From assembly GCA_041661045.1 (NCBI GenBank), contig JBAZVE010000001.1, forward strand, positions 690,001 through 722,000: DNA of 32,000 nucleotides, written 5' to 3'. Position numbers and translations under genes: made by a program. Below, one piece after another: positions 3,686 to 18,124 of this stretch (the first letter of the stretch is position 1; each line of letters begins with the position of its first letter). The notes under the pieces are model-generated. The model was not told the DNA's origin. It worked only from the letters and a program-made list of their open reading frames with translations, and did not search any database. Source of the stretch: Candidatus Saccharimonadota bacterium. Lineage in GTDB: Bacteria > Patescibacteriota > Gracilibacteria > UBA1369 > 2-02-FULL-48-14.

Positions 3686-3705
3686 TAGAATAATTACGCC
3701 AATTT

Positions 3706-3714
3706 TGGTATAAT
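3706..3714 (+). promoter_or_regulatory. extended -10 promoter (TGgTATAAT) for cassette methyltransferase
   Basis: TG-n-TATAAT at 3706-3714, 18 nt upstream of the ATG at 3733. Confidence 0.5.
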
Positions 3715-3732
3715 GAGATAATTAAAATTAAA

Positions 3733-4254
3733 ATGAAACGAATTTTAGAAATAGGGCCGGGCTCGAATCCAATGCACCAAAAACATGGCGAGAATTTGAG
3801 GAAATTAGCACCAAATGAACGCAACTTGTTACTAGAGGAAGGAGAAGATTATACTGCGTTGGAATTACCAAGAGTTGCTTTTAATCACTGGATTTGGCAG
3901 ACCGCGAAAGAAGCATACGGAGATCGTGTGCATTTTGTGCATGGAGATGGAACAGAAATGTCATTTGAGGATGAAAGTTTTGATGAGTTGGTTGCGAACG
4001 GTTCATTTGTTGGTGATGAAAAAACTTTTGCTGAATTTCATCGTGTTTTAAAACAAGGAGGAATTTTGCGTTTGGGAACAAAAGCACAAAATGCACAAAG
4101 AGTAGTGCATGATTGGGCGTATAGACTTGGCAAAATGGGCTTTACCATGGTGGATGAATTAACTCATCGTTATAGGTATACCCATAATAAGGGAGTGATT
4201 GCCAATCTTAGAGGAACTGATTATGTCGTTTTAGTTTTTCGTAAGGAATCCTAA
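3733..4254 (+). CDS. class I SAM-dependent methyltransferase, cassette-borne, inverted relative to array
   Basis: 173 aa. Motif I is ILEIGPG, followed by the acidic post-I ALEL, GDGTEMSFEDESFDEL and LKQGGIL. Confidence 0.8.
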   Translation: MKRILEIGPGSNPMHQKHGENLRKLAPNERNLLLEEGEDYTALELPRVAFNHWIWQTAKEAYGDRVHFVHGDGTEMSFEDESFDELVANGSFVGDEKTFAEFHRVLKQGGILRLGTKAQNAQRVVHDWAYRLGKMGFTMVDELTHRYRYTHNKGVIANLRGTDYVVLVFRKES

Positions 4255-4280
4255 TTGAGCGTCCTGTCAAAATTATTCTA

Positions 4281-4300
4281 TGGCAAAGTGCGTGTTAAGT
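4281..4300 (-). repeat. minimal remnant attC-like site (C)
   Basis: tggcaaa-GTGC-g-T-gttaagt. Both R boxes and the bulge are present with no body. The left hexamer plus 9 more nt (4272-4286) are the exact reverse complement of 3680-3694, next to site B. Confidence 0.5.
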
Positions 4301-4380
4301 GATGTAATTTTTCTGGTTTAATCCTTTGATCTCTAAAAGAAATCACCTTTTAAAGGGAATAAAAATTTGATTTTCCGTCA

Positions 4381-4704
4381 TTATATGTCAATAACTTCAA
4401 CATGATCAGCAATTCCTAGTTCCCATCTTGGGTTAAAATTAGGATCTCCAAAAGTTGCCTGATATCTAGGATCAAGGTCTTCCTCTCCTTGAAAAACAGC
4501 TTGTCCGAGTGTCAAAACTACTAAATCATGTGCTGTGCCAAATACTTCCTCAACGGCAATGTCATATGCTCTTTCAGCACTAACTGGCCATTCTTGTTGT
4601 AATCTTTTGGCAACATTTGGAGCGTTATATCCATCCGTGCCGGCAATGACTTTCATTACGACTTCATCATGTTCACATACCGATACTATTCCTTGTGTAC
4701 CCAT
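4381..4704 (-). CDS. hypothetical protein (cassette ORF)
   Basis: 107-aa ORF, the only long ORF between sites C and D. No recognisable domain. Confidence 0.6.
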   Translation of the reverse strand: MGTQGIVSVCEHDEVVMKVIAGTDGYNAPNVAKRLQQEWPVSAERAYDIAVEEVFGTAHDLVVLTLGQAVFQGEEDLDPRYQATFGDPNFNPRWELGIADHVEVIDI

Positions 4705-4860
4705 GCAAGTGTTAGTTAAGTATTTAGTGGTGTACTGTAGGTTGGAACCGTCGACTCGTCAAGATTAAAATTTATTGTCTAATATGGTTCTATTACAGAA
4801 AATCAAATTTTCGTTTCTTTTTAAAAGTTGACGGGATGGAAAAAGAGAAAAATGTATTTT

Positions 4861-4935
4861 GCCTAATGTCCCTGCGTAGCCAACTTGGGTGAGGGCTTTT
4901 GTAGAAAAGCCCTCACCAGCTATGTAGTGTTGTCG
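4861..4935 (-). repeat. attC-like site (D), short form lacking P2
   Basis: gcctaat-GTCC-ctgcgtagc ... gctatgtag-T-gttgtcg. The body is caacTTGGGTGAG plus a perfect 13-bp hairpin ggtgagggctttt/aaaagccctcacc. The two L-stem mismatches are G.T on the plus strand. Confidence 0.7.
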
Positions 4936-4967
4936 GAAGTATCCAGCTCACTAACTTTTTCAAAACT

Positions 4968-5237
4968 TTAATTTGCTTCTTCGTATTTTTCTAAAAAATT
5001 ATGCATTCTTTTATATTTTTCGTGCACAACAACATCCTCTAGAATTCCTTCAGCTCTTGTCTTTAACAGAATTCGTAAATTTTGAATTATCTGTGGCTGT
5101 ATATTGCCTTCATTGTCTGTTCTAGGTTGTATTTTTGCAAAGACTTCTCCCAAACTAGTCTCACTTAAATGTTCAAGTGCGGCTGCTCTTAACTGAGTCG
5201 GCGTGATTTTTGATGGTGATGTTTCGCCTAGTTCCAT
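4968..5237 (-). CDS. hypothetical protein (cassette ORF)
   Basis: 89-aa ORF. Its last codons and stop lie inside the cassette's terminal inverted repeat. Confidence 0.6.
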   Translation of the reverse strand: MELGETSPSKITPTQLRAAALEHLSETSLGEVFAKIQPRTDNEGNIQPQIIQNLRILLKTRAEGILEDVVVHEKYKRMHNFLEKYEEAN

Positions 5238-5243
5238 TTTTAA

Positions 5244-5271
5244 ATTATATCATATATTTCAAATTTTGCAA
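5244..5271 (-). promoter_or_regulatory. sigma70-like promoter TTGCAA-N16-TATAAT, leaderless geometry
   Basis: On the minus strand the -35 TTGCAA is at 5266-5271 and the -10 TATAAT at 5244-5249. Only 6 nt separate the -10 from the ATG (5237). Confidence 0.5.
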
Positions 5272-5308
5272 ATTAAAGTTTTGAAAAAGAACCAATTCTG
5301 GATATTTC

Positions 5309-5445
5309 GTACAACGGCTGTGCGTTGGTGAAGTTGGACAGTAGTAAAATATACGAAGTGTGACTACTGGCCAACTTGGGTGAGGGCTTTATGGTTGAGC
5401 GAAGCCAGCCTAAAAAAAGACCGAACTGCTAACGCGCTGTTGTAC
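5309..5445 (-). repeat. attC-like site (E)
   Basis: gtacaac-GGCT-gtgcgttgg ... ctaacgcgc-T-gttgtac. P2 is aagttggacagtagt-AAAATAT-acGAAgt-..actactggccaactt, followed by TTGGGTGAG. It contains an exact GCGAAGC. Confidence 0.8.
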
Positions 5446-5492
5446 GATGAAGAAAAAAATGCGTCGCAATTAAAGCACAAATGAATGGCTTT

Positions 5493-5789
5493 CTAGAGGA
5501 GATAGTCAAGGTCAGTGACGAGACTGCCCGTAATGTTCCTAAGTGGTGCCCCCATTTCTGAAGAGGGGTATTTTTCTTGAAACTCAGATAGAGAAGCGTT
5601 TATGACAGGGCCATTTACTGTGAGAGCATATACCACAATGTCATTTTTTCTTCCCAAAATAACAACAGTTCCTCGAGTGCCAAGGTGATTTTTGCCAGTA
5701 AAAACATCTCCTCTTTGTGGGTTGCTCCAGATTTCGTGGGCAATATCTTGAGGAGTTTCTTCATTGCTGGACGCACATGACTCAGCCAT
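5493..5789 (-). CDS. hypothetical protein (cassette ORF)
   Basis: 98-aa ORF, the only long ORF between sites E and F. Confidence 0.6.
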   Translation of the reverse strand: MAESCASSNEETPQDIAHEIWSNPQRGDVFTGKNHLGTRGTVVILGRKNDIVVYALTVNGPVINASLSEFQEKYPSSEMGAPLRNITGSLVTDLDYLL

Positions 5790-5815
5790 TTTGTGATTTT
5801 TTAAATTGTCCTCTC

Positions 5816-5824
5816 ATTATAGCA
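5816..5824 (-). promoter_or_regulatory. extended -10 promoter (TGcTATAAT) for ORF 5493-5789
   Basis: The minus strand reads aTGcTATAATgagaggacaatttaaaaaatcacaaaATG. Confidence 0.45.
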
Positions 5825-5838
5825 TTTTTTCCTTTTTC

Positions 5839-5954
5839 GTACAACGGTCGCAGTATAGCTGAAGTTTATACATGGTAAAATGACCGAAAAGCCAACCAAG
5901 TATAAACTTGGGTGAGGGCTGATCTAGCCCGAACCAGCTATACTGCTGTTAGCT
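5839..5954 (-). repeat. attC-like site (F)
   Basis: gtacaac-GGTC-gcagtatagctg ... cagctatactgc-T-gttagct. It has a P2 with GGTAAAAT, then TTGGGTGAG and a gggct/agccc hairpin, then GAAC. Confidence 0.8.
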
Positions 5955-5962
5955 GATGTTTA

Positions 5963-6274
5963 CTAAATAGATATATCAGTTGGATTTTGTTCCGCATATC
6001 CAAATTTACCTAGGATGTGATTTGCAGCAATCCATAAATCAGAATAATCACCATTAACGATGGCGCTTGTTTCGTCTGGCGATAGATTAGTAACTCCAGT
6101 GGATGCAAAGTCTACTAAAATATCTGTGAGGATTGTATCCTCAGGATGTTCTCTGGCAACATTTAATAATGTGGCAGCGTCAGAGGACTCAGAATGCATC
6201 TTAATGATCTTTGCCAAACCCAAAACTACTTTTTCGTGGGCACTTCGCTTAACTGGTTCGTCATCTATACTCAT
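5963..6274 (-). CDS. hypothetical acidic protein (cassette ORF)
   Basis: 103-aa ORF between sites F and G. Confidence 0.6.
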   Translation of the reverse strand: MSIDDEPVKRSAHEKVVLGLAKIIKMHSESSDAATLLNVAREHPEDTILTDILVDFASTGVTNLSPDETSAIVNGDYSDLWIAANHILGKFGYAEQNPTDISI

Positions 6275-6282
6275 GTCAGTGC

Positions 6283-6309
6283 ATTATAATATATTTCGAT
6301 TGCATGCAA
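6283..6309 (-). promoter_or_regulatory. sigma70-like promoter TTGCAT-N15-TATAAT, near-leaderless
   Basis: On the minus strand the -10 TATAAT is at 6283-6288, 8 nt from the ATG at 6274. The -35 TTGCAT is at 6304-6309. The spacer is 1-2 nt short. Confidence 0.4.
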
Positions 6310-6317
6310 TAAATTTC

Positions 6318-6377
6318 AGCTAATGTTGGGAATGACTGAGCGAAGCGAAGGAATGAACCGCATAGTCATTGTTAGGC
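6318..6377 (-). repeat. attC-like site (G), 60-bp short form
   Basis: agctaat-GTTG..atgact-gaGCGAAGCGAAGgaatGAACc-gcatagtcat-T-gttaggc. It lacks P2 and keeps the GCGAAGC mini-hairpin and GAAC. Confidence 0.65.
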
Positions 6378-6396
6378 GATGTGAATTTTTCTCCAA

Positions 6397-6720
6397 TTAT
6401 TTAGTAGCTTCTTCTTCTTTTTCAAAAATCTTTGAAATCAATTCACGTACAAATGCTTTAGCTTGCTCTACGTCTAGTTCCTCAACATATCCGTCTTCAT
6501 CTAATTTACCATTAAGTACTCCAGCCCTAATTAAGCTTTCAAAAACAGCAAAATCATAGCTACCTGACCCATTAAATCTCTTACCATCAAAAATTCTTTC
6601 CGGATTATTTGTCCATGGGGCTACGGCAAGTTGACGGAGATATTCTCTAAGAGTAACTTCTTTTGCGTTATATGGTTCGTTGGGTTTAACACTGATGTCT
6701 AGAATTTCTTTGTGGTTCAT
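6397..6720 (-). CDS. hypothetical protein (cassette ORF)
   Basis: 107-aa ORF with a consensus promoter immediately upstream. Confidence 0.65.
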   Translation of the reverse strand: MNHKEILDISVKPNEPYNAKEVTLREYLRQLAVAPWTNNPERIFDGKRFNGSGSYDFAVFESLIRAGVLNGKLDEDGYVEELDVEQAKAFVRELISKIFEKEEEATK

Positions 6721-6739
6721 GGTTTTTGAAATAGAATTT

Positions 6740-6767
6740 ATTATATGTCAATCATAATATTTGTCAA
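6740..6767 (-). promoter_or_regulatory. consensus sigma70 promoter TTGACA-N16-TATAAT inside cassette
   Basis: The minus strand reads caacTTGACAaatattatgattgacaTATAATaaattctatttcaaaaaccATG. Confidence 0.65.
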
Positions 6768-6791
6768 GTTGAATGTGGGAAAATTCATTTC

Positions 6792-6897
6792 GCCTAATGT
6801 TCGTGAATAACCGAAGGTTGCTAATGGTAAAACATGCCGAAGGCGGACCGTTGGCAACTTTGGGCGAACGAAGTGAGCCGGTTATTCACTGTTGTAC
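6792..6897 (-). repeat. attC-like site (H)
   Basis: gcctaat-GTTC-gtgaataaccg ... cggttattcac-T-gttgtac. P2 is gttgctaatggt-AAAACAT-gccGAAggc-gg-accgttggcaac with two G.T pairs. It is followed by TTTGGGCGAA and cGAAg. The body is about 90% identical to site M. Confidence 0.85.
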
Positions 6898-6930
6898 GCT
6901 GTATTAAAATTTGATCGCGTTCAGCGAGCA

Positions 6931-6959
6931 TTGGAAGAGTGGCAATTTTTTGCTATAAT
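6931..6959 (+). promoter_or_regulatory. sigma70-like promoter TTGGAA-N17-TATAAT for inverted cassette ORF
   Basis: The -35 is at 6931-6936 and the -10 at 6954-6959. The -35 lies inside the cassette's terminal inverted repeat. Confidence 0.6.
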
Positions 6960-6982
6960 GTAAAGAATTAACTTTTTGTTCT

Positions 6983-7399
6983 ATGGCCATGGAAGGTCCT
7001 AATTACGACGATCCGATTGAGCAAGATAAGCAACACGCTTTGAATCAAATTAGAACTATTGGGCCAGAAAAACCAGTAGGGTATTTGCCAGTAGAAACCA
7101 TCACAGGTTATTGTGGTCAAAATTTTGATGTATTTGTAGCAGAATGTCGTCAGAGAGGTCACGAAACTCGTATATTCACGGGCGGAGGATGGCCTGGTTT
7201 TTCTGGCTCATTGTATGTATATGATAAAGTTTCTCTGCAAAATTTGCTCAATCGGAACCAAAGTATTCTGGAACAATCTGGTTGGCCACTGAATCCTGAT
7301 GAATTTGTAGCTAATCTTCATGTTTGGGTTCAAGAAGGAACTCCTATTTTTAAGTTGATTGCTCAAGCATTTGGAGATAAGTTCAGCGAAAGTCTTTAA
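6983..7399 (+). CDS. hypothetical protein (cassette ORF, inverted relative to array)
   Basis: 138-aa ORF, the only long ORF between sites H and I, with its own promoter. Confidence 0.65.
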   Translation: MAMEGPNYDDPIEQDKQHALNQIRTIGPEKPVGYLPVETITGYCGQNFDVFVAECRQRGHETRIFTGGGWPGFSGSLYVYDKVSLQNLLNRNQSILEQSGWPLNPDEFVANLHVWVQEGTPIFKLIAQAFGDKFSESL

Positions 7400-7447
7400 G
7401 CAAAAATTGCCACTCTTTCAATCCTGTTAGGGAAATTTTAGTATGGC

Positions 7448-7569
7448 GTACAACGTCCGAGACTATGAGAAGTCGGACAGGTGTAAAATACGCTGAAGGC
7501 GTACACCTGTCCAATTTGGGTGAACGACTGATCAAAGAGAAGGAGTGAACCTCATAGTCTCTGTTGTGT
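7448..7569 (-). repeat. attC-like site (I)
   Basis: gtacaac-GTCC-gagactatgag ... ctcatagtctc-T-gttgtgt. P2 is gtcggacaggtgt-AAAATA-cgcTGAAGgcg-t-acacctgtccaat, followed by TTGGGTGAA and ..GAAC. Confidence 0.85.
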
Positions 7570-7598
7570 GATGTTTTGCTGCAGTTACCCAGCGTCTA

Positions 7599-7627
7599 TA
7601 GACAAAATATATGTAAAGTGTTATAAT
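7599..7627 (+). promoter_or_regulatory. sigma70-like promoter TAGACA-N17-TGtTATAAT for inverted cassette ORF
   Basis: The -35 is at 7599-7604. The extended -10 has TG at 7619-7620 and TATAAT at 7622-7627. Confidence 0.6.
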
Positions 7628-7652
7628 TCTTACTTATCCCTAAAGCTTTTAC

Positions 7653-8027
7653 ATGAAGTCAACTACCGATTCAGATCAACCACATTTTAATGGACTGGAG
7701 ATATCAGAGGTGCCCAGAAAAATAAGAGTACGAACTACAACATATCCAAATGGGCTTGTTGGTGTTTTGTCTAGGAATGGCAATTCTGTGACATTTAAGA
7801 CATTAGAAGATGAGAATTACCCCGCTATACAGCAAGCAGGTGGTTATTGCGATGCTGTTTGGGAGTATCAATTTGAATTAGATACTAATGGACAGCCCAT
7901 TCGTACGGTAGAGAAAACGCTTGTAGTAAAGGAAGGTCAGTGGGCACCTTTGGACCCTAGCTTTCCCGAGCATATATCGGAGGGGCCTAATTATATGTGG
8001 AGTGTAATTACTGACACATTGTCATAA
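7653..8027 (+). CDS. hypothetical protein (cassette ORF, inverted relative to array)
   Basis: 124-aa ORF between sites I and J, with its own promoter. Confidence 0.65.
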   Translation: MKSTTDSDQPHFNGLEISEVPRKIRVRTTTYPNGLVGVLSRNGNSVTFKTLEDENYPAIQQAGGYCDAVWEYQFELDTNGQPIRTVEKTLVVKEGQWAPLDPSFPEHISEGPNYMWSVITDTLS

Positions 8028-8045
8028 AAGCTGCAGCAAAATTTC

Positions 8046-8162
8046 ACACAATGTTCGAGACTATGTAAAGTTTGCCAGTGATAAAATATGCTGAAGGCGG
8101 ATCACTGGCAAATTTGAGCGAAACGAGCAAAGCGAAGTGGAGCTACATAGTCTCTGTTGTGA
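8046..8162 (-). repeat. attC-like site (J)
   Basis: acacaat-GTTC-gagactatgta ... tacatagtctc-T-gttgtga. P2 is gtttgccagtgat-AAAATAT-gcTGAAggc-gg-atcactggcaaat, followed by TTTGAGCGAA and aGCGAAGt. Confidence 0.85.
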
Positions 8163-8180
8163 GAAGTTGCTTTGAACTTT

Positions 8181-8408
8181 TTATTTTGCTTTCGATTTGC
8201 TCATTTGATGTACGATGAGCGAAACAATCAGGCCAATAACTCCACCAACAATCATGCTAACGAAAACAACGGGCACAACTGGATTTGAGGATTCTAAATC
8301 TTGAGAGACAATGAATTGGATAGTGCTATAGACGGTGAGAGCTGAGACTAGCCCACAGAGGAGGCCTGTTGCAATGCCTGTTGTATAGAGATGTTTTGGA
8401 TGATGCAT
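8181..8408 (-). CDS. small two-TM membrane protein (paralog of 10213-10440)
   Basis: 75 aa, MHHPKHLY..two hydrophobic helices..SKSKAK. About 70% identical by eye to the ORF at 10213-10440. Confidence 0.7.
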   Translation of the reverse strand: MHHPKHLYTTGIATGLLCGLVSALTVYSTIQFIVSQDLESSNPVVPVVFVSMIVGGVIGLIVSLIVHQMSKSKAK

Positions 8409-8475
8409 AAGTGTAAAGTAAATTATTACCCTGATTGTTTAGACTCTTTTATATTATATGGTTCAAAGCAATTTC

Positions 8476-8581
8476 GTACAACGGTCGCGCATAAACGAAG
8501 AAGACCAGCGGTAGAATATCCCGTAGGGTTACCGCTGGTCAATTTGTGCGAACGAAGTGAGCTGTTTATGCGCTGTTGTAC
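8476..8581 (-). repeat. attC-like site (K)
   Basis: gtacaac-GGTC-gcgcataaac ... gtttatgcgc-T-gttgtac. P2 is gaccagcggt-AGAATAT-cccGTAggg-tt-accgctggtc, followed by TTTGTGCGAA and cGAAg. Confidence 0.85.
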
Positions 8582-8598
8582 GATGCCGTGAAAAATGG

Positions 8599-8841
8599 CT
8601 ACTCTTTTACTGGAAGACAGGTAATTGTACCTAATTCACCACTAACCCAATTGCCATCTAAATCATATAGTCTTGTGATAGTAGATGTTCCGTCAGGATT
8701 GTTTTCCAAAACTTCTCCATGAAATTGTTTGGTAGGGTCATAGGGTTTAAGGCCAAAGTTACTCATCCAGCTAAATTGTGAAAAAGTAAATCTAGGCAAT
8801 TCTTTTGCTTCTTCAGGGGAAAGGGTACGTGGATTCTCCAT
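8599..8841 (-). CDS. hypothetical protein (cassette ORF)
   Basis: 80-aa ORF between sites K and L. Confidence 0.6.
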   Translation of the reverse strand: MENPRTLSPEEAKELPRFTFSQFSWMSNFGLKPYDPTKQFHGEVLENNPDGTSTITRLYDLDGNWVSGELGTITCLPVKE

Positions 8842-8897
8842 ATTTCATGGTGATTAGGAATGTAAACTACTCTAATTATAACATTTTTCACGGTTTC

Positions 8898-9036
8898 GTA
8901 CAACGTTCCGCACTATGCGAACTTGTGCAGGTGTAAAATAGCCGAAGGCGGACACCTGTACAAGTTGGGTGAAGGTTTTTCAGGCTGCGCAAAGCCAGCC
9001 GATCAGAAAACCTGAACCGCATAGTGCGTGTTGTAC
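8898..9036 (-). repeat. attC-like site (L), near-identical body to P
   Basis: gtacaac-GTTC-cgcactatgcg ... cgcatagtgcg-T-gttgtac. P2 is cttgtgcaggtgt-AAAATA-gccGAAggc-gg-acacctgtacaag with one G.T pair. It is followed by TTGGGTGAA, P3 aggtttt../..aaaacct and GAAC. Confidence 0.85.
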
Positions 9037-9062
9037 GCTGTAATAAAAAATGCGATGACAAA

Positions 9063-9296
9063 CTATTTATCTTTCTTTTCTTCAACTCCACCAACCCATT
9101 GAACAACAGGCTTTGCCACTTCTGGCGTAGTTAGAGGTTCGAAAACTACTTCCCCAGCTTTTTTTGCTGTATCACCTGCTTGTGAAACAACTGGAGGTTG
9201 TAAACCATCCCAAGTAACAGCAGGAGATTCTGGCTTGGCAGGTGGCAAAGCCTCCCATGCAGTTACAGGAGATTCTGTTTTTTTTGTGTCAGACAT
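9063..9296 (-). CDS. hypothetical Pro/Val-rich small protein (cassette ORF)
   Basis: 77-aa ORF between sites L and M. Low-complexity composition. Confidence 0.55.
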   Translation of the reverse strand: MSDTKKTESPVTAWEALPPAKPESPAVTWDGLQPPVVSQAGDTAKKAGEVVFEPLTTPEVAKPVVQWVGGVEEKKDK

Positions 9297-9352
9297 GTAA
9301 ATGTTTGTTAAATTATGGTCTATCAGATGATTATAGCATTTTTTGTTATGGC

Positions 9353-9458
9353 GTACAATGTCCGTGAATAACCGAAGGTTGCTAATGGTAAAATATGCCG
9401 AAGGCCAACCATTAGCAACTTTGAGCGAACGAAGTGAGCCGGTTATTCACTGTTAGGC
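9353..9458 (-). repeat. attC-like site (M), H family
   Basis: gtacaat-GTCC-gtgaataaccg ... cggttattcac-T-gttaggc. The P2 stem gttgctaatggt/accattagcaac is perfectly paired. Confidence 0.85.
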
Positions 9459-9472
9459 GTTGGTTAGGGGTG

Positions 9473-10003
9473 CTAACGAATTGATGAAAAAATTTCTTCG
9501 ACTAAACCAGCTTCTGCGACTGGGGGCTGAAAAAATATTTGGCAATAATAATCCTGAGATTTTTCTTCTGACCATTCAGCAAGACTGAGACCGATGTTGC
9601 CATTTCCAACATTATCTTGAGTGCCAAATATTGAGTATTTTACTTTTACTAATTCGTCTTGTTTCTCAAAAGTGCGAGTGTCGGATTGAAGTATTTCAGC
9701 CTCCATGCCGCCTTGCCAGTCGCAGTCGATCATCATTGTTTTCTCCTGTTTTGCGTCGTAAAACTGTGTATAAACTCCTCCTGAATCATAAGTCTCATCA
9801 GCATAAGTCCAAGATGAAGGGTAATCTAATTCATAATTAATGCTACCGAATGTGAAGGAGGTAAGCAGGGCTTCTGGGCTTTCGACTGCGACGACATCAT
9901 CTGTTTCAATGGTAATACCGGAATTTATAGCAGTATCATCTACTTGTGACGAACAGGCGGCAAAAGAAACTGTGATAGCGAATAGGAGTAGAAATTTTTT
10001 CAT
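9473..10003 (-). CDS. putative lipoprotein, unknown function (cassette ORF)
   Basis: 176 aa. The signal peptide has a lipobox-like MKKFLLLFAITVSFAAC. Confidence 0.7.
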   Translation of the reverse strand: MKKFLLLFAITVSFAACSSQVDDTAINSGITIETDDVVAVESPEALLTSFTFGSINYELDYPSSWTYADETYDSGGVYTQFYDAKQEKTMMIDCDWQGGMEAEILQSDTRTFEKQDELVKVKYSIFGTQDNVGNGNIGLSLAEWSEEKSQDYYCQIFFQPPVAEAGLVEEIFSSIR

Positions 10004-10078
10004 ATTTACTTGTTAAATGATACTTGAATCATATCGGAAGTTGTTGTTTTTACAAAACTTCTCGTACCTCTAACTTTC

Positions 10079-10192
10079 GCCTAACGTTCGCGCATATGCA
10101 AAGTGCGAGCGCGGTAAAATGTTAGCACGCAGTGCTACACCGCGCGAGCATTTGGGCGAGGCCTCAGCCAAGCTGCATATGCGCTGTTGTAC
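10079..10192 (-). repeat. attC-like site (N)
   Basis: gcctaac-GTTC-gcgcatatgca ... tgcatatgcgc-T-gttgtac. P2 is gtgcgagcgcggt-AAAATGT-tagcacGCAgtgcta-c-accgcgcgagcat, followed by TTGGGCGAG. Confidence 0.85.
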
Positions 10193-10212
10193 GGTGTTGC
10201 TTTGAGCAAACA

Positions 10213-10440
10213 CTATTTGGTTTTTGATTTACTAACTTGATGTACTGTGAAAGACACGATCGAGCCAATAATGCCTCCAACTAAAAGGCTTATAACTACA
10301 ACTGCAATAACTGGATTTGTTGTTTCTAAGTCTTGTGAAGCAATATATTGCATTGTGCTGTATACGGTTAGTGCAGAAATAAGACCGCAGAGGACACCTG
10401 TTACTAGACCTGTCACATAAAGATGTTTTGGATGATGCAT
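10213..10440 (-). CDS. small two-TM membrane protein (paralog of 8181-8408)
   Basis: 75 aa, MHHPKHLY...SKSKTK. Same length and architecture as the ORF at 8181-8408. Confidence 0.7.
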   Translation of the reverse strand: MHHPKHLYVTGLVTGVLCGLISALTVYSTMQYIASQDLETTNPVIAVVVISLLVGGIIGSIVSFTVHQVSKSKTK

Positions 10441-10501
10441 ATTGATGAAATTAATTATTGGCTTGATTGAATATGATTATTGTACTGCTCAAAGCAATTT
10501 C

Positions 10502-10625
10502 GTATAACGGCCGAGAATATGTGAAGTTTTGTAGCGGTACAATTTGCCCGAAGGGCTCACCACTACAAAACTTGGGTGAGCGACTGAGTGGAACGAAGGA
10601 GAGAACCACATATTCTCTGTTAAGT
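10502..10625 (-). repeat. attC-like site (O)
   Basis: gtataac-GGCC-gagaatatgtg ... cacatattctc-T-gttaagt. P2 is gttttgtagcggt-ACAATTT-gcccGAAgggc-tc-accactacaaaac, followed by TTGGGTGAG and ..GAAC. Confidence 0.85.
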
Positions 10626-10641
10626 GGTGTTGTGCTGATTT

Positions 10642-11154
10642 TTACTTACAATATCCAGTAGACTTGTCATAAGTCTTACCATCGGAGCAGCTGCAACGGG
10701 CATTTAACCAGTCGCCATCCGTTTCCGTACAGTTATTCCCTACGACATCAGTCCAAAAATAATATGCCCCTTCTGGGTTCGGCAAGCCAACAGACACAGC
10801 AAAAGCGGCTCCACCTGGACCGCCGAATGTCGTCTGGCAGTAACCTGTTTTTTTGTCGTACATCATCTCTTGCGTTTGCCTTTCTTCTAGCGGACATTCA
10901 CAAACACTGTCGCTAAATGAACCGCCACTTAATTCACAGTTATATCCAACTAATTCGTCCCATTCATTTGATGAAGTGACTTCAGTTATAGTTTCAGGTT
11001 CGTTTAGTTCTTGCTCTTGGACGGAAACTGATGGCGACTCTTGCGATTCATTCGTTTGCCAAAAGTAAACTCCTCCACCACCAATCAATGCAGCGATAAC
11101 TGCAACGAGTACCATTTTGCTTGTTTGAGACATAAATGTTTTGGTTAAATGCAA
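10642..11154 (-). CDS. Cys-rich membrane-anchored secreted protein, unknown function (cassette ORF)
   Basis: 170 aa. The N-terminal TM helix ends GGGGVYFWQ, followed by an acidic linker. The C-terminal domain has about 10 Cys and a repeated KxTGYC motif. The start may be the internal MSQTSK. Confidence 0.65.
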   Translation of the reverse strand: MHLTKTFMSQTSKMVLVAVIAALIGGGGVYFWQTNESQESPSVSVQEQELNEPETITEVTSSNEWDELVGYNCELSGGSFSDSVCECPLEERQTQEMMYDKKTGYCQTTFGGPGGAAFAVSVGLPNPEGAYYFWTDVVGNNCTETDGDWLNARCSCSDGKTYDKSTGYCK

Positions 11155-11185
11155 ATTTAGCTTACGGGAAAATCAGCGCAATGTC

Positions 11186-11323
11186 ACTTAACGTCCCGCA
11201 CTATGCGAGCTTGTGCAGGTGTAAAATAGCCGAAGGCGGACACCTGTACAAGTTGGGTGAAGGTTTTCAGGCTGCGCGAAGCCAGCCCATCAGAAAACCT
11301 GAACCGCATAGTGCGTGTTATAT
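11186..11323 (-). repeat. attC-like site (P), near-identical body to L
   Basis: acttaac-GTCC-cgcactatgcg ... cgcatagtgcg-T-gttatat. The body matches L almost base for base and contains an exact GCGAAGC. Both R-box hexamers differ from those of L. Confidence 0.85.
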
Positions 11324-11327
11324 GGTT

Positions 11328-11720
11328 TTATTTGCCATCTTCCAAGACGCAATCTGCTTCAATTTCAATCAGCCATTCTGGATTTATAAATCCAGACACT
11401 TCTGCGAAAGTACAGGCGGGCTGTATGTTAGAGAAAAATTCTCCGTGAGCTTTTGCAGCATCTTTCCACGTTTTCATATCTCTTAACAAGATACGTGTGC
11501 GAATTACATCTTCAAGCGAACCGCCGGCTTGCTCGATAACATTTTTGATAATCGTTAGGCAACGTTTCGATTGTTCATATACATTGCCTGGAGAATGAAC
11601 TGAACCATCTTCCGCAATTGGCGCAGTTCCAGTGACAGCGATAAAGTTGCCGATTCTTACAGCCCGCGAAAACCCAATTTCTTTTTCTAACGGCTGATTG
11701 TAAGTGATGTTTTTTCTCAT
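11328..11720 (-). CDS. ridA: RidA/YjgF/UK114 family protein (cassette ORF)
   Basis: 130 aa. FSRAVRIGNFIAVTGTAP...VYEQSKRCLTIIKNVIEQAGGSLEDVIRTRILL...IEIEADC is the typical RidA family pattern. Confidence 0.85.
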   Translation of the reverse strand: MRKNITYNQPLEKEIGFSRAVRIGNFIAVTGTAPIAEDGSVHSPGNVYEQSKRCLTIIKNVIEQAGGSLEDVIRTRILLRDMKTWKDAAKAHGEFFSNIQPACTFAEVSGFINPEWLIEIEADCVLEDGK

Positions 11721-11757
11721 AAATGTTTTTTAAGAGGTAGTGCAGGCAAATAATGCC

Positions 11758-11883
11758 ATATAACGGCTGGGTATAGGCGATGTTGTTGCGCGGTAAAATA
11801 TGCCACGAAGTGGCTCACCGCGCAACAATATGGGAGAACGAAGAAGCGAAGCGACTGAGTGAACCGCCTATACCCTGTTACAT
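11758..11883 (-). repeat. attC-like site (Q)
   Basis: atataac-GGCT-gggtataggcg ... cgcctataccc-T-gttacat. P2 is gttgttgcgcggt-AAAATAT-gccacGAAgtggc-tc-accgcgcaacaat. It is followed by an exact GCGAAGC and GAAC. Confidence 0.85.
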
Positions 11884-12004
11884 GATGTGCATATTTTCCT
11901 TAATTTCTTGAAAAGGAATTCTTCTTTAAAAGAGACTGATTTTGTTTTCTGTTTTGGGCGAGGGCAGAGGGGATTAAGGGGTGAATGCCCGAGCCCAAAA
12001 CTCC

Positions 12005-12832
12005 TCATTCCACGTCTCCTTGCGCTATCCTATTTTGTGCTTCTTGCATTAATTTCTCTGCTTCCTTTTTCATGAGATCATTAATTCTGTCTACTGCATC
12101 CATACTTCCGTTATATCTTTCCATTACTTTCTTATCCCTGAAGTATTTCAGAGTTGTTCCCTCGTATTTCCATACTGTCCAAAGACGATTTTTCATCAGC
12201 TTGAGGTTGTAAACTTTTGCTTCGGCAATGGAGAGGGCATTTTCAATCTTGAGTGAATTTACGAATGTCTCAATCATGGTTATGAATCCGCCAAAATTTT
12301 CGACGAAAGCTGTTCGTTGAGCTGGCGGTCTCATTCGTTCGGGTGTTGCCATTCTCTCATTGCGATCCAGCAACCTTTCAAAGTCATATCGAAATTGTTT
12401 AATATTGCCGTTTGCTGATCTTACCAAGTAATCAGTGATTAAAATTTTGTTGTGAACATAATAACTTTTGAGTCTCATTTTGATCAGATCTTCATCAAAG
12501 TAAATGGCAATGGTTGCTGGGAAATTAGTCTCTTGGATAGCATAAAAATTTGGGTCGGTTACTACTTGAACTTGCTCCACAATTGTTTTTGCTCTGGCAA
12601 TAAAATCTTCAAGCTGACTGACTGCGACAAGTAAATGACTTAATGTTTGAGAAAAAGCTATCTCTGTCCGCCTGATTGCTTCTTTTCTGTTTGATCTCTT
12701 TTGTAGGCACCCTTTAACTAAAAATCCAATAACTGAGAGAATGATTGCTAAAAATGGACCTAGGGCAGAGCCAATTAGCGTTTGCCATTTTTCGATAAAT
12801 TCAGTTGATGTGATTAATTTTAGTGTTTCCAT
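12005..12832 (-). CDS. hypothetical membrane-anchored protein (third gene of three-gene cassette)
   Basis: 275 aa with one TM helix near the N-terminus and a helical/coiled C-terminal part. No recognisable domain. Confidence 0.65.
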   Translation of the reverse strand: METLKLITSTEFIEKWQTLIGSALGPFLAIILSVIGFLVKGCLQKRSNRKEAIRRTEIAFSQTLSHLLVAVSQLEDFIARAKTIVEQVQVVTDPNFYAIQETNFPATIAIYFDEDLIKMRLKSYYVHNKILITDYLVRSANGNIKQFRYDFERLLDRNERMATPERMRPPAQRTAFVENFGGFITMIETFVNSLKIENALSIAEAKVYNLKLMKNRLWTVWKYEGTTLKYFRDKKVMERYNGSMDAVDRINDLMKKEAEKLMQEAQNRIAQGDVE

Positions 12833-12872
12833 TGCTTGTGGATGATACTCTTTTTACCCTATAAAAAACACC

Positions 12873-13508
12873 TTAATTGTATGAGGGAACAGAATGTTCC
12901 CTACAATCATAGTTGCCTTTTATGTTGGCGTTATAGTAACTGCCAAAGGAGGATGCTTTTTGCAGTTCTGCCCAAATTGACTTTGGTGTTTCGCAATAGT
13001 GATAATATTTTCCATTAATGTTCATAATCAAGTAACTGTTGCTTTTGTCGTACCATGCGCCTTCGATGAAAGAGCTTTTTGATGTATTTAAGTATTCAAA
13101 ATATGAACTATCGAGATTAACGGAATCTTTTCGATACTGAACAGCAACGTAATTCTGTTTTGATTGTGAATCTTTTTCGTACTTTTCAAGGCAATCAAAA
13201 AGAATATCGGTCATTAACGATTCTTCTTCGTCTTCAAGCTCGAAGGTCGGATATTCGCCTTGAGAATTTACGAAAGAACCATCTGGTTGAGTTATGTATC
13301 CCTGAGAATTCAGAAATTCATTTCCTTTTTGGGCGGCTTCAGAAAGACAAACGTCATAGAAAGGTGAAGATGTTATCTCCTCAATGGTATTTTTTGATGA
13401 ATTGTCTTGAATATCTGGCCTGAGAACGTAAAACATGAAGCCACCAATAAGAAGTGTCCAAAAGGCAACTATGATTATTATTGGTTTTTTGGAGGAATTA
13501 GTTTTCAT
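12873..13508 (-). CDS. hypothetical membrane-anchored secreted protein (second gene of three-gene cassette)
   Basis: 211 aa with an N-terminal TM helix (PIIIIVAFWTLLIGGFMFYVL) and a soluble domain. Confidence 0.65.
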   Translation of the reverse strand: MKTNSSKKPIIIIVAFWTLLIGGFMFYVLRPDIQDNSSKNTIEEITSSPFYDVCLSEAAQKGNEFLNSQGYITQPDGSFVNSQGEYPTFELEDEEESLMTDILFDCLEKYEKDSQSKQNYVAVQYRKDSVNLDSSYFEYLNTSKSSFIEGAWYDKSNSYLIMNINGKYYHYCETPKSIWAELQKASSFGSYYNANIKGNYDCREHSVPSYN

Positions 13509-13517
13509 AAGTCTGTA

Positions 13518-13781
13518 TCACGTTAAATTAGTAATAATGCCGTAAAGTATAGAAAAAATAATGAAGGAAAAAATAATTCCAAGCTGAATCAGTATGCTTT
13601 TTTTGAGTGGAAATTTGTATATTGCTTCCAAAATTATCCCCAAGGCCAATATCAACGTTAAAACTACTAGCCAAATTATAGAAAAATTAAAATGCCACAT
13701 TAACAGCTCTAACAATATGTAAACAAAAATAATGCCTTGGTTTGTTCTATTATTAAATGTTTTTGTTAGAGCGTTTTTCAT
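13518..13781 (-). CDS. hypothetical small integral membrane protein (first gene of three-gene cassette)
   Basis: 87 aa with 2-3 hydrophobic helices. It lies 9 nt upstream of the next ORF. Confidence 0.55.
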   Translation of the reverse strand: MKNALTKTFNNRTNQGIIFVYILLELLMWHFNFSIIWLVVLTLILALGIILEAIYKFPLKKSILIQLGIIFSFIIFSILYGIITNLT

Positions 13782-13914
13782 GGTTTGTATTATATAGTAA
13801 ATTGTTTTCGGAGCGAAGCGGAGAAAACTCCTTATTTCCCCTCTATAAAACAGAAAACAAAATCAGATCTCATTTTTAAGAATTGGCTTTAGCCAAAAGG
13901 AAAATATGCATTTC

Positions 13915-14036
13915 ATGTAACGTCCGTGTGTTGGCGAAGTTTGGACGTGGTAAAATTAGCACGAAGTGCGTACCACGGCCAAACTTGTGAGAGGCTTTTC
14001 TGGAGGAAAGGCCGAACCGCTAACACACTGTTATGT
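13915..14036 (-). repeat. attC-like site (R), attC of the integrase-proximal cassette
   Basis: atgtaac-GTCC-gtgtgttggcg ... cgctaacacac-T-gttatgt. P2 is gtttggacgtggt-AAAATTA-gcacGAAgtgc-gt-accacggccaaac, followed by TTGTGAGAG, a P3 hairpin and GAAC. Confidence 0.85.
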
Positions 14037-14104
14037 GCTGTTTCATTTTTCATTTGCGACTGAAGGGAGCAAATGTGAGCAAAGTGAACAGAGAAATGCT
14101 TTTA

Positions 14105-14473
14105 CTACTTCCCTTCGATGAGTTCTAGTAAACGACTGCAATATTCTTCAACCGCTTCAGCACCACTAGCTGTTATTGTATCAAAATTCTGTCTAAGTTC
14201 ATTCATGATGGAATCAAAGGCGGCGATAGCCTCAGGGTTGCTTAATTGCATAGCCAGATCTGCTTGATCTTCGTTATATGTGCTACGCAAATACTCTTCG
14301 TAATTACGGAGAAATCTGCGAGGGTTTCCACCTGTATCTTGCCCACTAAAGGCATATTGGATGGCCCCCATCATATTGCGTGCCTGACGATCGAGTTTAC
14401 AGCCTCGAGAAAAATTATTTCTAATAATGTCTAATACATGATCTCTTTGGCTGTCGCCGCCTTCGATACGCAT
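14105..14473 (-). CDS. hypothetical protein (first, integrase-proximal cassette ORF)
   Basis: 122-aa ORF between site R and the attI-like junction. Confidence 0.6.
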   Translation of the reverse strand: MRIEGGDSQRDHVLDIIRNNFSRGCKLDRQARNMMGAIQYAFSGQDTGGNPRRFLRNYEEYLRSTYNEDQADLAMQLSNPEAIAAFDSIMNELRQNFDTITASGAEAVEEYCSRLLELIEGK

Positions 14474-14523
14474 ATTTTTTGGATTAAGTGATTAAAAGCA
14501 TTTCTCTAAAAAATGGAATGGCA

Positions 14524-14760
14524 CATAACTCGTTTCTAACGGAAAACAGTGCGGCTAGCAAGGGGGAATGGGGTGTTTTGGTGAAATGGGGGAGGAGGAG
14601 TGAAGAAACGAGTTGTGGGGAGTGGGGTGACAAAAAGGTGAATTCTGTAAGGAATTTGTCAGGTTTTTGTCATGAATTTGTCAGAAGGGCGGGGTGGGAG
14701 TGGGAAAAATTCAGGAAAGTTTAAGGAAAAATTCAGAAAAAATTCAGGATTTTTTCAGGT
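14524..14760 (-). promoter_or_regulatory. attI-like junction and intI/cassette intergenic control region
   Basis: acataa|c at 14524-14530 is the exact complement of the site R right box gttatgt, and the cassette inverted repeat ends there. Further right lie 2x GAATTTGTCAG (14652, 14674; 22 bp apart), 3x AAAAATTCAGR (14705, 14727, 14738) and a tract of (R)TGGGG runs (14562-14704). Confidence 0.6.
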
Positions 14761-14805
14761 TTGGGCTATAGAGTGGGGGTATTCCTTACTTTTTTACTTT
14801 TACTT

Positions 14806-15618
14806 ATGGAACTCAAAGAAGCTTTGGCCTTAATGGAAAGAGAGCTTCGGCTGAGGCATTACAGCTCTAAAACGGTGAAAAATTACTTAAGATGTGTGGA
14901 GCTTTATTTTTCGGGGAAGAAAAGTTTGGCGTATCGGGAGGAGGAGCTCAAAGGGTTTTTGTTTGGGAAGCTTGAAGCTGGGGCGGCGCCGGAGACGGTG
15001 AATCTTTATCTTTGTGCGGTGAAGTTTTTTTATAAACAATGTTTGCACTTTAAGGGTATTGTGAAAGTTCGTTTTGCGCGAAGAAATGTGCGCTTGCCGG
15101 TGGTGCTTTCGAGGGAGGAGATCCTTAAGATTTTAGAATTTATTCCCAACACAAAGCACCGTTATTTGGTGGCGCTGGCGTATGGGGCGGGGCTGCGCGT
15201 GAGTGAGGTGGTTCGGTTGAGGGTTGCAGATCTTGATTTTGCACGGAAGCTGCTTGTGGTGCGAGAAGGGAAGGGTGGCAAAGCGAGGGTGACGCTTTTG
15301 CCCGAAAATTTGAGGGAAGAGCTGAAGAGTTTTGTTGTGGGGAAAGTGGCGATGGATTTTGTGTTTGAGAGTGAACGGGGTGGGGCTTTGAGTACACGGT
15401 CGGCTCAAAAGGTTTTTGCGGTGGCTTTGGAGAAAACGGGACTGCAGAAAGAGGCTTCGTTCCATTCTTTGCGGCACAGTTTTGCGACGCATTGTTTGGA
15501 AAATGGAGTGGACAGTCGCTTCATTCAAAAACTGCTTGGACACAGTGCCATTCGTACTACAGAAAGGTATACGCAAGTGAGTCAGGTGAGTTTGGCGGGA
15601 ATTCGGAGTCCACTTTAG
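14806..15618 (+). CDS. IntI-like tyrosine recombinase lacking the IntI-specific insertion
   Basis: About 270 aa from the ATG at 14806 (the track starts at TTG 14761). Blocks shared with IntI1 are RLPVVLSxEE, YGAGLRVSE, LRVADLDF, VREGKGGKAR, HSLRHSFATH, LLGHS and ERYTQV, plus the C-terminal GIRSPL. Only about 58 aa separate GKGGKAR from HSLRH, against about 105 in IntI1. Confidence 0.85.
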   Translation: MELKEALALMERELRLRHYSSKTVKNYLRCVELYFSGKKSLAYREEELKGFLFGKLEAGAAPETVNLYLCAVKFFYKQCLHFKGIVKVRFARRNVRLPVVLSREEILKILEFIPNTKHRYLVALAYGAGLRVSEVVRLRVADLDFARKLLVVREGKGGKARVTLLPENLREELKSFVVGKVAMDFVFESERGGALSTRSAQKVFAVALEKTGLQKEASFHSLRHSFATHCLENGVDSRFIQKLLGHSAIRTTERYTQVSQVSLAGIRSPL

Positions 15619-15650: not shown

Positions 15651-17081
15651 ATGATTCTTCCACTGTTATCGGCGCTGAGTTTTTTCATTGGGATTTTGGT
15701 GGCGGCGTTTGGGGAGTGGAATCTTTTGCGTGGTGAGATGGCTTGGATTTTTGTGATCGCAATGGGCTGCCTTTTTAAGAAAAGATTTTTGGGTGTTTTG
15801 ATTTTAGCCTTTTTGTTCGGGGTTTTGAGGATGAATGTGTACGAGCAGAGCTTGGGGGAGGCTTCGATTGTGGCTTTGGAGGAGGGCGTTTTTGAGGGGC
15901 GGATTGTGTCTGAAGTGGACACGCGGATTGATCACCAAAACATTATAGTGGACACGGAGTATGGAAGGATTTTGGCGGAGCTGTCCTTGTATGAGTTGGT
16001 GCACTATGGAGATTTTGTGGAACTGCGGGGCCAATTGGAAGTTCCGGAGCAGGGGAGTTCGTATGCGCGGTATTTGTTTCGAAATAAAGTTCTTTACACA
16101 ATGAACTCTGCGCGGGTGGAAGTCTTAAAGGGTGCGGGGACTTCGTTGCGGGGGTCGCTGTATGCATTTAAAGGGGTGGTGCAAAAAAGAATCAACCGGC
16201 TTTATTTTGAGCCGGAGGCGAGTTTGGTTTCCGGCTTATTGTTGGGAAGCCGAAAGGGGATGAGCGAGGAGCTCACGGCGGATTTTCAGGCGGTGGGGCT
16301 CACGCACATTGTGGCGGTTTCCGGGTACAATATTAGCCTGGTGATTGCGTTTATCTTTTGGAGTTTTTCTTTTTTGTTGATAAAAAAACGAGTGGTTTTG
16401 AGTGTGCTCATGGTGGCTCTTTTTGTCCTTTTTGTGGGAGCTTCGGCGGCGGCGGTGCGGGCGGGAATCATGGGGAGTTTGACGGCGTGGGGGCTTTACA
16501 TCGGGCGCAAGAGTCAGGCGTTTTTTGCTTTGCTGTGGAGCGCCGTGCTCATGACGATATGGAATCCGGCGATTCTCCCTTTTGATATTGGCTTTCAACT
16601 TTCCTTTGCCTCGACCCTTGGCATTTTGGTCTTTGTTCCCATCTTGGAAAAAGCTTTTCCGCTCCAAAAGATCAAGTCAAAGCTTTTGAAGGAGGCTTTG
16701 TTTTTGACCCTTAGCGCGCAGTTGGCGACAACCCCTTTTATCGCCTTTTATTTTGGACGATTTTCCATTATTTCCCTGCTTGCAAATTTGCTTGTTGCTC
16801 CGCTTTTGCCCTTCTCGATGCTGTTTTCGGCACTGTCTTTGATTGGAGGAGAACTGTTTAGCCTTTTGGCCGGAGTCTATTTAAAAGCGGTGATCGGTGT
16901 GGTGCGTTTGCTCGCAAAAATTCCCCATGCGGACATTGCGATGCCGCTGAGTTTGGAGTTTTTTATTTTCTTTTTGTGCGTGCTTGTTTTTTCGACTCTT
17001 CTTTTTTATAGATCCAAATTGGCCCGAGCTTTTGGTCTCGAATCCTGGGGAGTTTTTTCCAAGGCTCTAAACCCTCAATAA
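15651..17081 (+). CDS. comEC: ComEC/Rec2 family DNA internalisation channel (short form, no metallo-beta-lactamase domain)
   Basis: 476 aa, polytopic. LVSGLLLGSRKGMSEELTADFQAVGLTHIVAVSGYNISLV is the ComEC competence-domain signature. Confidence 0.85.
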   Translation: MILPLLSALSFFIGILVAAFGEWNLLRGEMAWIFVIAMGCLFKKRFLGVLILAFLFGVLRMNVYEQSLGEASIVALEEGVFEGRIVSEVDTRIDHQNIIVDTEYGRILAELSLYELVHYGDFVELRGQLEVPEQGSSYARYLFRNKVLYTMNSARVEVLKGAGTSLRGSLYAFKGVVQKRINRLYFEPEASLVSGLLLGSRKGMSEELTADFQAVGLTHIVAVSGYNISLVIAFIFWSFSFLLIKKRVVLSVLMVALFVLFVGASAAAVRAGIMGSLTAWGLYIGRKSQAFFALLWSAVLMTIWNPAILPFDIGFQLSFASTLGILVFVPILEKAFPLQKIKSKLLKEALFLTLSAQLATTPFIAFYFGRFSIISLLANLLVAPLLPFSMLFSALSLIGGELFSLLAGVYLKAVIGVVRLLAKIPHADIAMPLSLEFFIFFLCVLVFSTLLFYRSKLARAFGLESWGVFSKALNPQ

Positions 17082-18055: not shown

Positions 18056-18073
18056 TGGGTTTTGCTTTGGTCG

Positions 18074-18106: not shown

Positions 18107-18124
18107 CTTAAGAAGCAAGGAAAA

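Follow-up and report, generated by a model that had tools for sequence, protein, structure and literature searches.

A probable integron-like cassette platform in a bacterium of the candidate phyla radiation, with a short integrase that lacks the additional domain of IntI

The 32,000-nt stretch considered here (the window: positions 690,001 to 722,000 of contig JBAZVE010000001.1 in assembly GCA_041661045.1, from a Candidatus Saccharimonadota bacterium placed by GTDB in the Gracilibacteria) carries a gene for a 270-aa tyrosine recombinase at 14806..15618 on the + strand, and beside it a tract of small open reading frames (ORFs) parted by hairpin repeats at 3560..14529. We consider it likely that this is a sedentary chromosomal integron-like platform of a bacterium of the candidate phyla radiation (CPR; Peribacteria/Gracilibacteria-like), and that the 270-aa integrase is a sister of IntI without the I2 helix. 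The anatomy of the protein, the structure and covariation of the repeats, the attI motif, the recurrent geometry and the crossover at AAC/GTT, on which this reading is built, were established computationally.

The recombinase gene, encoding a putative IntI-like or XerA-like integrase, starts at ATG 14806 and stops at TAG 15616-15618, and an identical 270-aa protein is present in NCBI on a 1.32-Mb contig of a 'Candidatus Gracilibacteria' metagenome-assembled genome. The initial annotation had read the protein as IntI-like from the blocks RLPVVLS, YGAGLRVSE, LRVADLDF, VREGKGGKAR, LPENL, HSLRHSFAT and LLGHS, the catalytic Tyr255 and the tail GIRSPL, all of which are indeed in the translation, and a Pfam search returned the Phage_integrase catalytic domain (PF00589) at 4.6e-39 together with a SAM-like N-domain. 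The catalytic residues R131, K156, H220, R223, H246 and Y255 are all conserved. The C-terminal SPL tail, taken at first for a mark of IntI, is not IntI-specific but common throughout the radiation of short recombinases. Between GKGGKAR (residues 155-161) and HSLRHSFAT (220-228) there are 58 aa, as had been counted, while the same interval in IntI1 is 100 aa (residues 177-276) and not the ~105 aa given earlier; the IntI1 reference sequence used here has 100% identity to thousands of plasmid records.

In the field, integron integrases are defined by an additional domain of ~35 aa near patch III, which includes the I2 helix. In a phmmer search of the Protein Data Bank, VchIntIA (2a3v) was the best match to the window protein, split in two (query 12-177 on 11-181, and query 199-270 on 246-317), with 21 aa between the pieces in the query and 64 aa in VchIntIA; XerA of Pyrococcus (P. 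abyssi) aligns end to end at 29-36% identity. A MAFFT alignment with three IntIs opened two gaps, of ~33 aa (RAWWLKDQ...KYPRAGHSWP in IntI1) and ~11 aa (HTHSTDPRSGV), and XerA and XerD are likewise without both segments in the multiple alignment. In the AlphaFold2 model (predicted local distance difference test, pLDDT, 93.5), a 20-aa strand/loop joins helices 167-177 and 197-211, and there is no helix between residues 177 and 197, where I2 would be. The top structure in Foldseek was again 2a3v (E 3e-17, TM 0.78), in an alignment of 315 columns for the 270-residue query that leaves ~45 target residues unmatched, in keeping with the missing insertion. The split match, the MAFFT gaps and the model without an I2 helix confirm the earlier claim that the recombinase lacks the IntI-specific insertion, here ~43 aa including I2. 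A frameshift or mis-called start as the cause of the short protein, the objection that had been foreseen, is excluded because thousands of ~270-aa homologues align with it from end to end. An artefact of genetic code 25 (UGA=Gly) was likewise rejected, given that the stop is TAG and that code 11 gives full-length housekeeping ORFs nearby.

Among the NCBIfam models, the integron integrase (TIGR02249) scored highest with 194.6 bits, in two stretches and under its cutoff of 265, nearly tied with XerA_Arch (190.4 against a cutoff of 220); NF011946 (139 against 435), XerC (160.7 against 335) and XerD (142.6 against 330) were also below theirs. A HMMER scan of 1.84 billion representatives gave 2003 matches at E <= 1e-30. 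Because the best 150 of these are almost all single-stretch proteins of ~265-270 residues, some of them with N-terminal extensions, we take the family to be uniformly short. Some relatives (P0085, P0155, and P0204) do pass the XerA cutoff. In a neighbor-joining (NJ) tree (Kimura distances, 52 sequences, 270 columns, 300 bootstraps), which is rough and holds only five IntIs because a profile search meant to bring in diverse IntIs yielded little besides IntI1-like proteins, IntI was monophyletic at 100% with the window protein outside, and IntI plus the short CPR radiation split from XerC/D and XerA at 92%. In this tree the protein groups with IntI and is not nested in XerC/XerD, in keeping with the affinity proposed at first. 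In 43% of replicates IntI branched as the sister of the entire radiation, and in 56% it stood beside small subsets of it. Of the earlier phrase 'early-branching or reduced', an early-branching or sister position is compatible with this tree, which yields no single branching order of IntI and the radiation, and a reduced form is not favoured. Judging from sequence, the window protein is not an IntI by any membership test, yet it is among the closest known relatives of IntI.

Two relatives carry extra residues at the insertion point of IntI: P0137 (324 aa) has ~55 aa there and matches TIGR02249 in one stretch (231.8 bits), and the 326-aa protein at L097:1725-2642 has ~25 aa. Neither insertion has the ALxxKYP...W.W motif of IntI, and they could be independent gains or intermediates. 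Many other relatives at 35-45% identity (L003-L009 from Bacteroidales / Lentimicrobiaceae, P0204, and P0155) have N-terminal extensions of 80-290 aa and end in the same IKSPLD tail, and they form a separate branch of the radiation.

The repeats are imperfect palindromes of ~110-150 nt to the left of the integrase gene. A covariance model, trained on the window copies and then applied to the window and to other contigs, finds 16 sites between 3560 and 14040, all on the + strand and all left of the integrase gene, and none in the 17 kb to its right. From the integrase outward, these attC-like sites are 13912..14040 (107.8 bits; the nearest), 11755..11887 (115.5 bits), 11183..11327 (108.6 bits; interior 90-97% identical to that of the site at 8895-9040), 10499..10629 (112.6 bits), 10076..10196 (90.8 bits), 9350..9462 (109.2 bits), 8895..9040 (118.2 bits), 8473..8585 (112.8 bits; R stem GTACAAC/GTTGTAC, spacer GGTC opposite T, and a 10-bp L stem), 8043..8166 (116 bits), 7445..7573 (122.6 bits), 6789..6901 (112.4 bits), 6244..6381 (20.2 bits; weak or degenerate), 5836..5958 (77 bits), 5306..5449 (109.7 bits), 4860..4939 (27.9 bits; weak or truncated), and 3560..3688 (56.4 bits; the most distal detected). 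Folded as single-stranded DNA, four sites taken on both strands beat their shuffles in all eight folds, with z-scores of about -5 to -6.7 in five and of -2.4 to -3.7 in the other three. In the RNAalifold consensus from a structure-blind MAFFT alignment of 12 copies, the R stem is followed by a 3-4-nt bulge, a 10-bp L stem and then a three-way junction, and 29 of the 38 pairs show compensatory changes. Across 129 distinct sites of other contigs, in an alignment fitted to the model that somewhat inflates pairing, 94.2% of cells are paired, compared with 70.6% in shuffles and 33-39% in slid controls, and compensatory changes occur in 34 of 41 pairs. The 16 covariance-model sites and the compensatory changes bear out the earlier statement that the recombinase adjoins a structured attC array.

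The spacer between the R and L stems is asymmetric, GKYC opposite T (4:1 nt), and the arms are partly conserved in sequence (AACG..., TA..GAA). No conserved extrahelical bases were found in the L stem among the repeats. Because G.T wobbles are conserved at two positions of the + strand across the 129 sites, either the + strand folds or the - strand bears two fixed mismatches. At the hairpin tip, there is a conserved GGTA(A/T)AAT loop with a TGGGnGA motif. This tip motif (GGTAAAAT / TGGTATAAT on the + strand, for example at 7482-7489 and 13950-13957 of the window, at L029 4176-4296 and at L026 8333-8481) amounts in several contigs to a perfect extended -10 promoter element directed at the integrase, and it may act as a promoter or as a loop for protein binding. 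A strict search for RYYYAAC...GTTRRRY yielded only one site because the R boxes are mostly GTACAAC-like, and a relaxed core search with a folding filter was noisy. No Rfam family matches the repeat. The repeat type at 7445-7573 is 90-93% identical to repeats in unrelated metagenome contigs (L045, L043, L099, and L040). Because the integrases of those contigs are only ~50% identical to that of the window, horizontal exchange of cassettes or repeats between lineages is suggested by these sequences.

In the cassette array (3560..14529, - strand), the ORF modules are small, and most of them, being on the - strand, are divergent from the integrase; each ends near the next repeat. The ORF of the first cassette, next to attI (14105..14473, - strand, 122 aa), has no Pfam match, and the same holds for most cassette ORFs, the exceptions having KTSC, RidA/L-PSP, and methyltransferase domains. 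No cassette protein was found in common between the window and the other arrays fetched, where tblastn matches came only from a spurious ORF overlapping attC. The two ends of one cassette are complementary over the 20 nt outside AAC/GTT (mean 15.7/20, and at least 14 in 11 of 12 cassettes), while the two flanks of one repeat are not (7.5/20, against 7.1 +/- 2.7 in non-partner controls). Because the complementarity joins the ends of a cassette and not the flanks of a repeat, the crossover lies at the AAC/GTT core, and each repeat in the array is a chimera from crossover at that core, which is the signature of classical integron cassettes. It agrees with a core crossover that AAC/GTT is invariant across the 129 sites and that the outer pairs of the R stem are often unpaired.

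Four ORF modules are on the + strand, and all 16 repeats are in one orientation. Paralogous ORF modules (~72-80% identity; 8150-8485 and 10180-10510) carry unrelated repeats on both sides, and near-identical repeat interiors (86-97%; 8902-9036 and 11190-11323, 6796-6893 and 9357-9454) have unrelated ORFs on both sides, with an identity that stops exactly at AAC and GTT.

The array ends toward the integrase gene in an attI-like site (14510..14549, + strand; AAAATGGAATGGCACATAAC followed directly by TCGTTTCTAACGGAAAACAG), ~275 nt upstream of the integrase start, with the array boundary after the AAC at 14527-14529. The flank of its half-site GCACATAAC (14520-14529) pairs at 16 of 20 positions with the right end of the last cassette, and TCGTTTCTAACGGAA follows the AAC of the half-site. 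A motif AACTCGTTnnTAnnCGAA is conserved upstream of homologous integrases on other contigs. In 11 loci, ATTTCGyAyAAC followed by TCGTTTnTATnCGAA can be aligned, with AACT invariant, and a pattern search found AAC followed by TCGTTTnTAnnCGAA at the array boundary, just upstream of the integrase, in the window and ~17 other loci. Three Peribacteria contigs start exactly at the motif, as is expected where assemblies break in the array. We regard the site as a putative attI-like array boundary adjoining the integrase. At several loci, the sequence past the AAC makes up a palindrome of 13 bp with a spacer of 5 nt.

Two blocks of 11-nt tandem repeats, GAATTTGTCAG x4 and GGAAAAATTCA x4.3, lie between attI and the integrase start (14640..14749, + strand) and could be accessory binding or regulatory sites. 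Motifs like ATTTGTCA recur in L026 and L083. G-rich repeats of the GGGG(A/T)G type are also found between attI and the integrase (14560-14750), and L097 has a similar G-rich GGTGA array with AAATTTAAGGAAAA repeats at ~1440-1700. A scan of 14450-14830 for a consensus sigma-70 promoter (Pc) gave no match, and this consensus may not be that of CPR bacteria.

The pairing of recombinase and array recurs with identical geometry in at least 20 other contigs, which were reached from both sides. A contig scan seeded with the single integrase protein returned few close relatives, and among the protein-seeded contigs, same-strand repeats lie upstream of the integrase (50-67% identity to the window protein) in L026 (7 sites), L031, L032, L157 (Komeilibacteria), L158 (Wildermuthbacteria), and L159 (5 sites). 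The repeat-seeded scan used a 21-base DNA pattern from the repeat, a loosened form of one that had been overly specific to the source genome, against metagenome stretches, and it is blind to the type of any recombinase nearby. More than 120 stretches matched, where by our own estimate roughly 10 are expected by chance, and the covariance model placed 218 + 99 = 317 sites in same-strand arrays in them; viral contigs scanned with the repeat pattern gave no match. A tyrosine recombinase is present in 16 of these stretches; each is homologous to the window protein (39-56% identity) and situated downstream of the array in the same strand relation, and none is a canonical IntI. The downstream neighbours vary by genome (ComEC, pyrimidine genes, Cpn10, TsaE, rpsJ, and RecG), and the upstream side of the integrases always consists of accessory or defence genes.

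Related arrays (L026 = CP064962.1 1700-9300; L029 4490-9500; L032 1-9650) also contain insertion sequence elements (rve, DDE_Tnp_1, and Y1_Tnp), the HicA toxin, a SMODS gene like those of cyclic-oligonucleotide-based anti-phage signalling systems (CBASS), and restriction-modification genes. Sedentary chromosomal integrons are reported to carry similar toxin-antitoxin and defence genes.

In class 1 integrons and the Vibrio cholerae superintegron, likewise, the integrase gene is divergent from the cassettes and has an attI-like site beside it, and small ORFs, mostly co-oriented and promoterless-looking, are each followed by an imperfect palindrome of ~110-150 nt with an AAC/GTT core, R and L stems, a variable tip, and a structure conserved above its sequence. 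The outer R boxes are chimeric in both, the junction between G and TT on the - strand is common to the window attI-like site and classical integrons, and the window integrase is closest to VchIntIA among the solved structures. The window integrase differs, however, in that it is without the ~43-aa additional domain (the I2 helix and flanking segments), stays under the cutoff of the IntI model, and falls outside the IntI clade. The window sites differ from classical attC in the 4:1-nt spacer, the three-way junction with its GGTA(A/T)AAT loop, a more conserved sequence, and an L stem without conserved extrahelical bases, and the apparently independent assortment of ORF modules and repeat interiors seems to be a further difference. 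XerA and XerC/D share with the window protein a short architecture of two domains that has no I2 helix. The window protein nevertheless scores below the cutoffs of their models, groups with IntI instead (92%), and is consistently accompanied by cassette arrays and an attI-like site, with no dif/FtsK context seen. The 'Cand' subgroup (PMC8138268) likewise comprises Xer-related short recombinases from candidate phyla, and it is probably the same radiation as the window family.

As we envisage the platform, the integrase would serve at least 16 cassettes divergent from it, each made up of a small ORF module and, after it, an imperfect palindrome that as a single strand would fold into the R stem, a spacer of 4 versus 1 unpaired nt, the 10-bp L stem, and a branched tip. 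The integrase would bind attI and, in the folded repeat, the R and L arms, and would exchange strands at the AAC/GTT triplet, so that a cassette would be excised by repeat x repeat recombination and inserted by attI x repeat recombination. Because there is no I2 helix or additional domain, no IntI-type pocket for extrahelical bases would be formed, and recognition would presumably proceed via the partly conserved arms (AACG..., TA..GAA) and the asymmetric spacer. A different mode of recognising the folded site, as the initial annotation had put forward, may therefore be involved, which is supported by the lack of conserved extrahelical bases in the L stem, by the 4:1-nt asymmetric spacer, and by the partly conserved arms. 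I2-less Xer enzymes integrate the folded single-stranded CTX phage (Escudero et al., 2020).

Integron integrases are held to have innovated by acquiring I2 (Escudero et al., 2020), a gain seen as the shift of a Xer-like enzyme from double-stranded to folded single-stranded substrates (Messier and Roy, 2001; MacDonald, 2006; Escudero, 2020), and archaeal IntIs keep the additional domain (Ghaly et al., 2022). Our literature search, which was incomplete in coverage, turned up no account of CPR integrons or of an integron whose integrase lacks I2.

Several points weigh against the reading as an integron-like platform. All the evidence is computational, the recombinase survey of the source genome covers 32 kb of 1.3 Mb, and catalysis by the 270-aa protein, a single-stranded substrate, and the choice of strand are what we infer from it. 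According to a passage in Escudero et al. (2020) that cites Messier and Roy (2001), IntI1 without its additional domain has its activity abolished. ORF modules and repeat interiors of the window seem to assort independently, which counts against this reading because the classical single-crossover model does not predict it; it points to a crossover at each R box, and possibly to weak strand selectivity, or else to ORF modules having been inverted. With the cassette coding strand as the top strand, the arm that bears the extra spacer bases is not the one on which classical attC has its extrahelical bases. The pairing of integrase and array is also not uniform: L029 (P0109) has two repeats only, 5.7-7.4 kb away, L030 (P0085) has no repeat family upstream of its integrase and no attI motif, and in L136 the array (1-800, - strand) leads through a perfect attI motif ATTTCCGATAACTCGTTTCTATGCGAA to tsaD, with no integrase.

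The main rival explanation is that the protein is a housekeeping Xer-type dimer resolvase of the CPR lineage, the array being incidental or having grown near a dif-like site. The family is very large and widespread in CPR, most of its members score best on the archaeal XerA model, and for the window protein itself XerA_Arch comes close to the IntI model, with P. abyssi XerA aligning end to end. In Smyshlyaev et al. (2021; PMC8138268), the 'Cand' subgroup counts among the Xer-related recombinases and is presumed to substitute for Xer, with no recombination sites or cassette arrays given for it. The 13-bp palindrome with its 5-nt spacer in the attI region of several loci is reminiscent of dif, and L030 would be an instance of such a protein without an array. 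However, what speaks against a housekeeping resolvase is the geometry of array, attI and integrase in 16 of 16 repeat-seeded recombinase loci and in most protein-seeded ones, with differing downstream neighbours, and a crossover at the cassette ends that falls exactly at the core common to attI. Moreover, a Saccharibacteria contig (L020) has a conventional XerC/D-like protein, 28% identical to that of the window, and CPR are therefore not devoid of classical Xer. We think this explanation unlikely on balance, while the protein could be, or could also be, the dimer resolvase of its lineage in a dual role.

It is considerably less probable still that the array belongs to the clusters of attC sites lacking integron-integrases (CALIN), served in trans by a canonical IntI or a Y1/HUH hairpin enzyme, and that the recombinase is unrelated to it. 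CALINs are common, Y1_Tnp genes occur within the related arrays L026 and L031, and the view of the source genome is limited to 32 kb. Cury et al. (2016) concluded that recombinases lacking intI_Cterm near attC sites were not IntI, but their cases had fewer than three attC sites, compared with 16 here. No canonical IntI was found in 120 repeat-seeded contigs, where all recombinases belong to the window family in a fixed orientation, the window array has no Y1 gene, and a conserved attI motif lies immediately upstream of the integrase gene. We give a shade less credence even than this to a canonical IntI that was secondarily reduced by loss of its additional domain. IntI provides both the nearest solved structure and the best-scoring NCBIfam model, and P0137 (50-53% identity) has an insertion at the same position with a match to TIGR02249 in one stretch; that insertion, however, is without the ALxxKYPxA...W.W motif and without the second insertion of IntI. 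The monophyly of IntI (100% bootstrap), which excludes the window protein, and a radiation of more than 100 representative clusters that is almost uniformly short speak against such a loss.

More tentatively than we hold the reading of the window as an integron-like platform, and with slightly less than even confidence, we propose that CPR carry a widespread undescribed lineage of integrons whose integrase never gained I2 and yet recombines folded attC-like hairpins at AAC/GTT. If this is true, the capture of cassettes on structured sites predates I2 or arose in parallel to it, I2 was not the enabling step for integron-type recombination, and the lineage is a living proto-integron, through whose I2-less platform the origin of integrons could be directly tested. 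It would also show how folded sites are recognised without pockets for extrahelical bases, and it would add the CPR, with small genomes that rely on acquiring genes, to the groups that have cassette platforms. The definition by the IntI domain is built into IntegronFinder, and current tools, because they require this domain, would fail to count such elements as complete integrons. A compact 270-aa enzyme acting on partly sequence-defined hairpin sites could also serve as a recombination tool.

A ComEC-like competence (DNA-uptake) channel gene (15651..17081, + strand) lies 33 nt downstream of the integrase gene, in the chromosomal context outside the array. The two genes, being on the same strand with this short gap, may form an operon, which would tie a route of single-stranded DNA uptake to the integrase; the ComEC-like neighbour is not conserved in other genomes. 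The right flank (17000-25500) is syntenic with the Peribacteria contig L027 (methyltransferase, DUF4349, EndoIII, SLH/DPBB, Jag, YidC, and RnpA), and because of this synteny the platform appears to be at a fixed chromosomal locus near the origin-proximal rnpA-yidC region. The only match in an Rfam scan of the window was a tRNA-Glu at 18548. In L030 and L031, dnaA is ~7 kb from the integrase gene.

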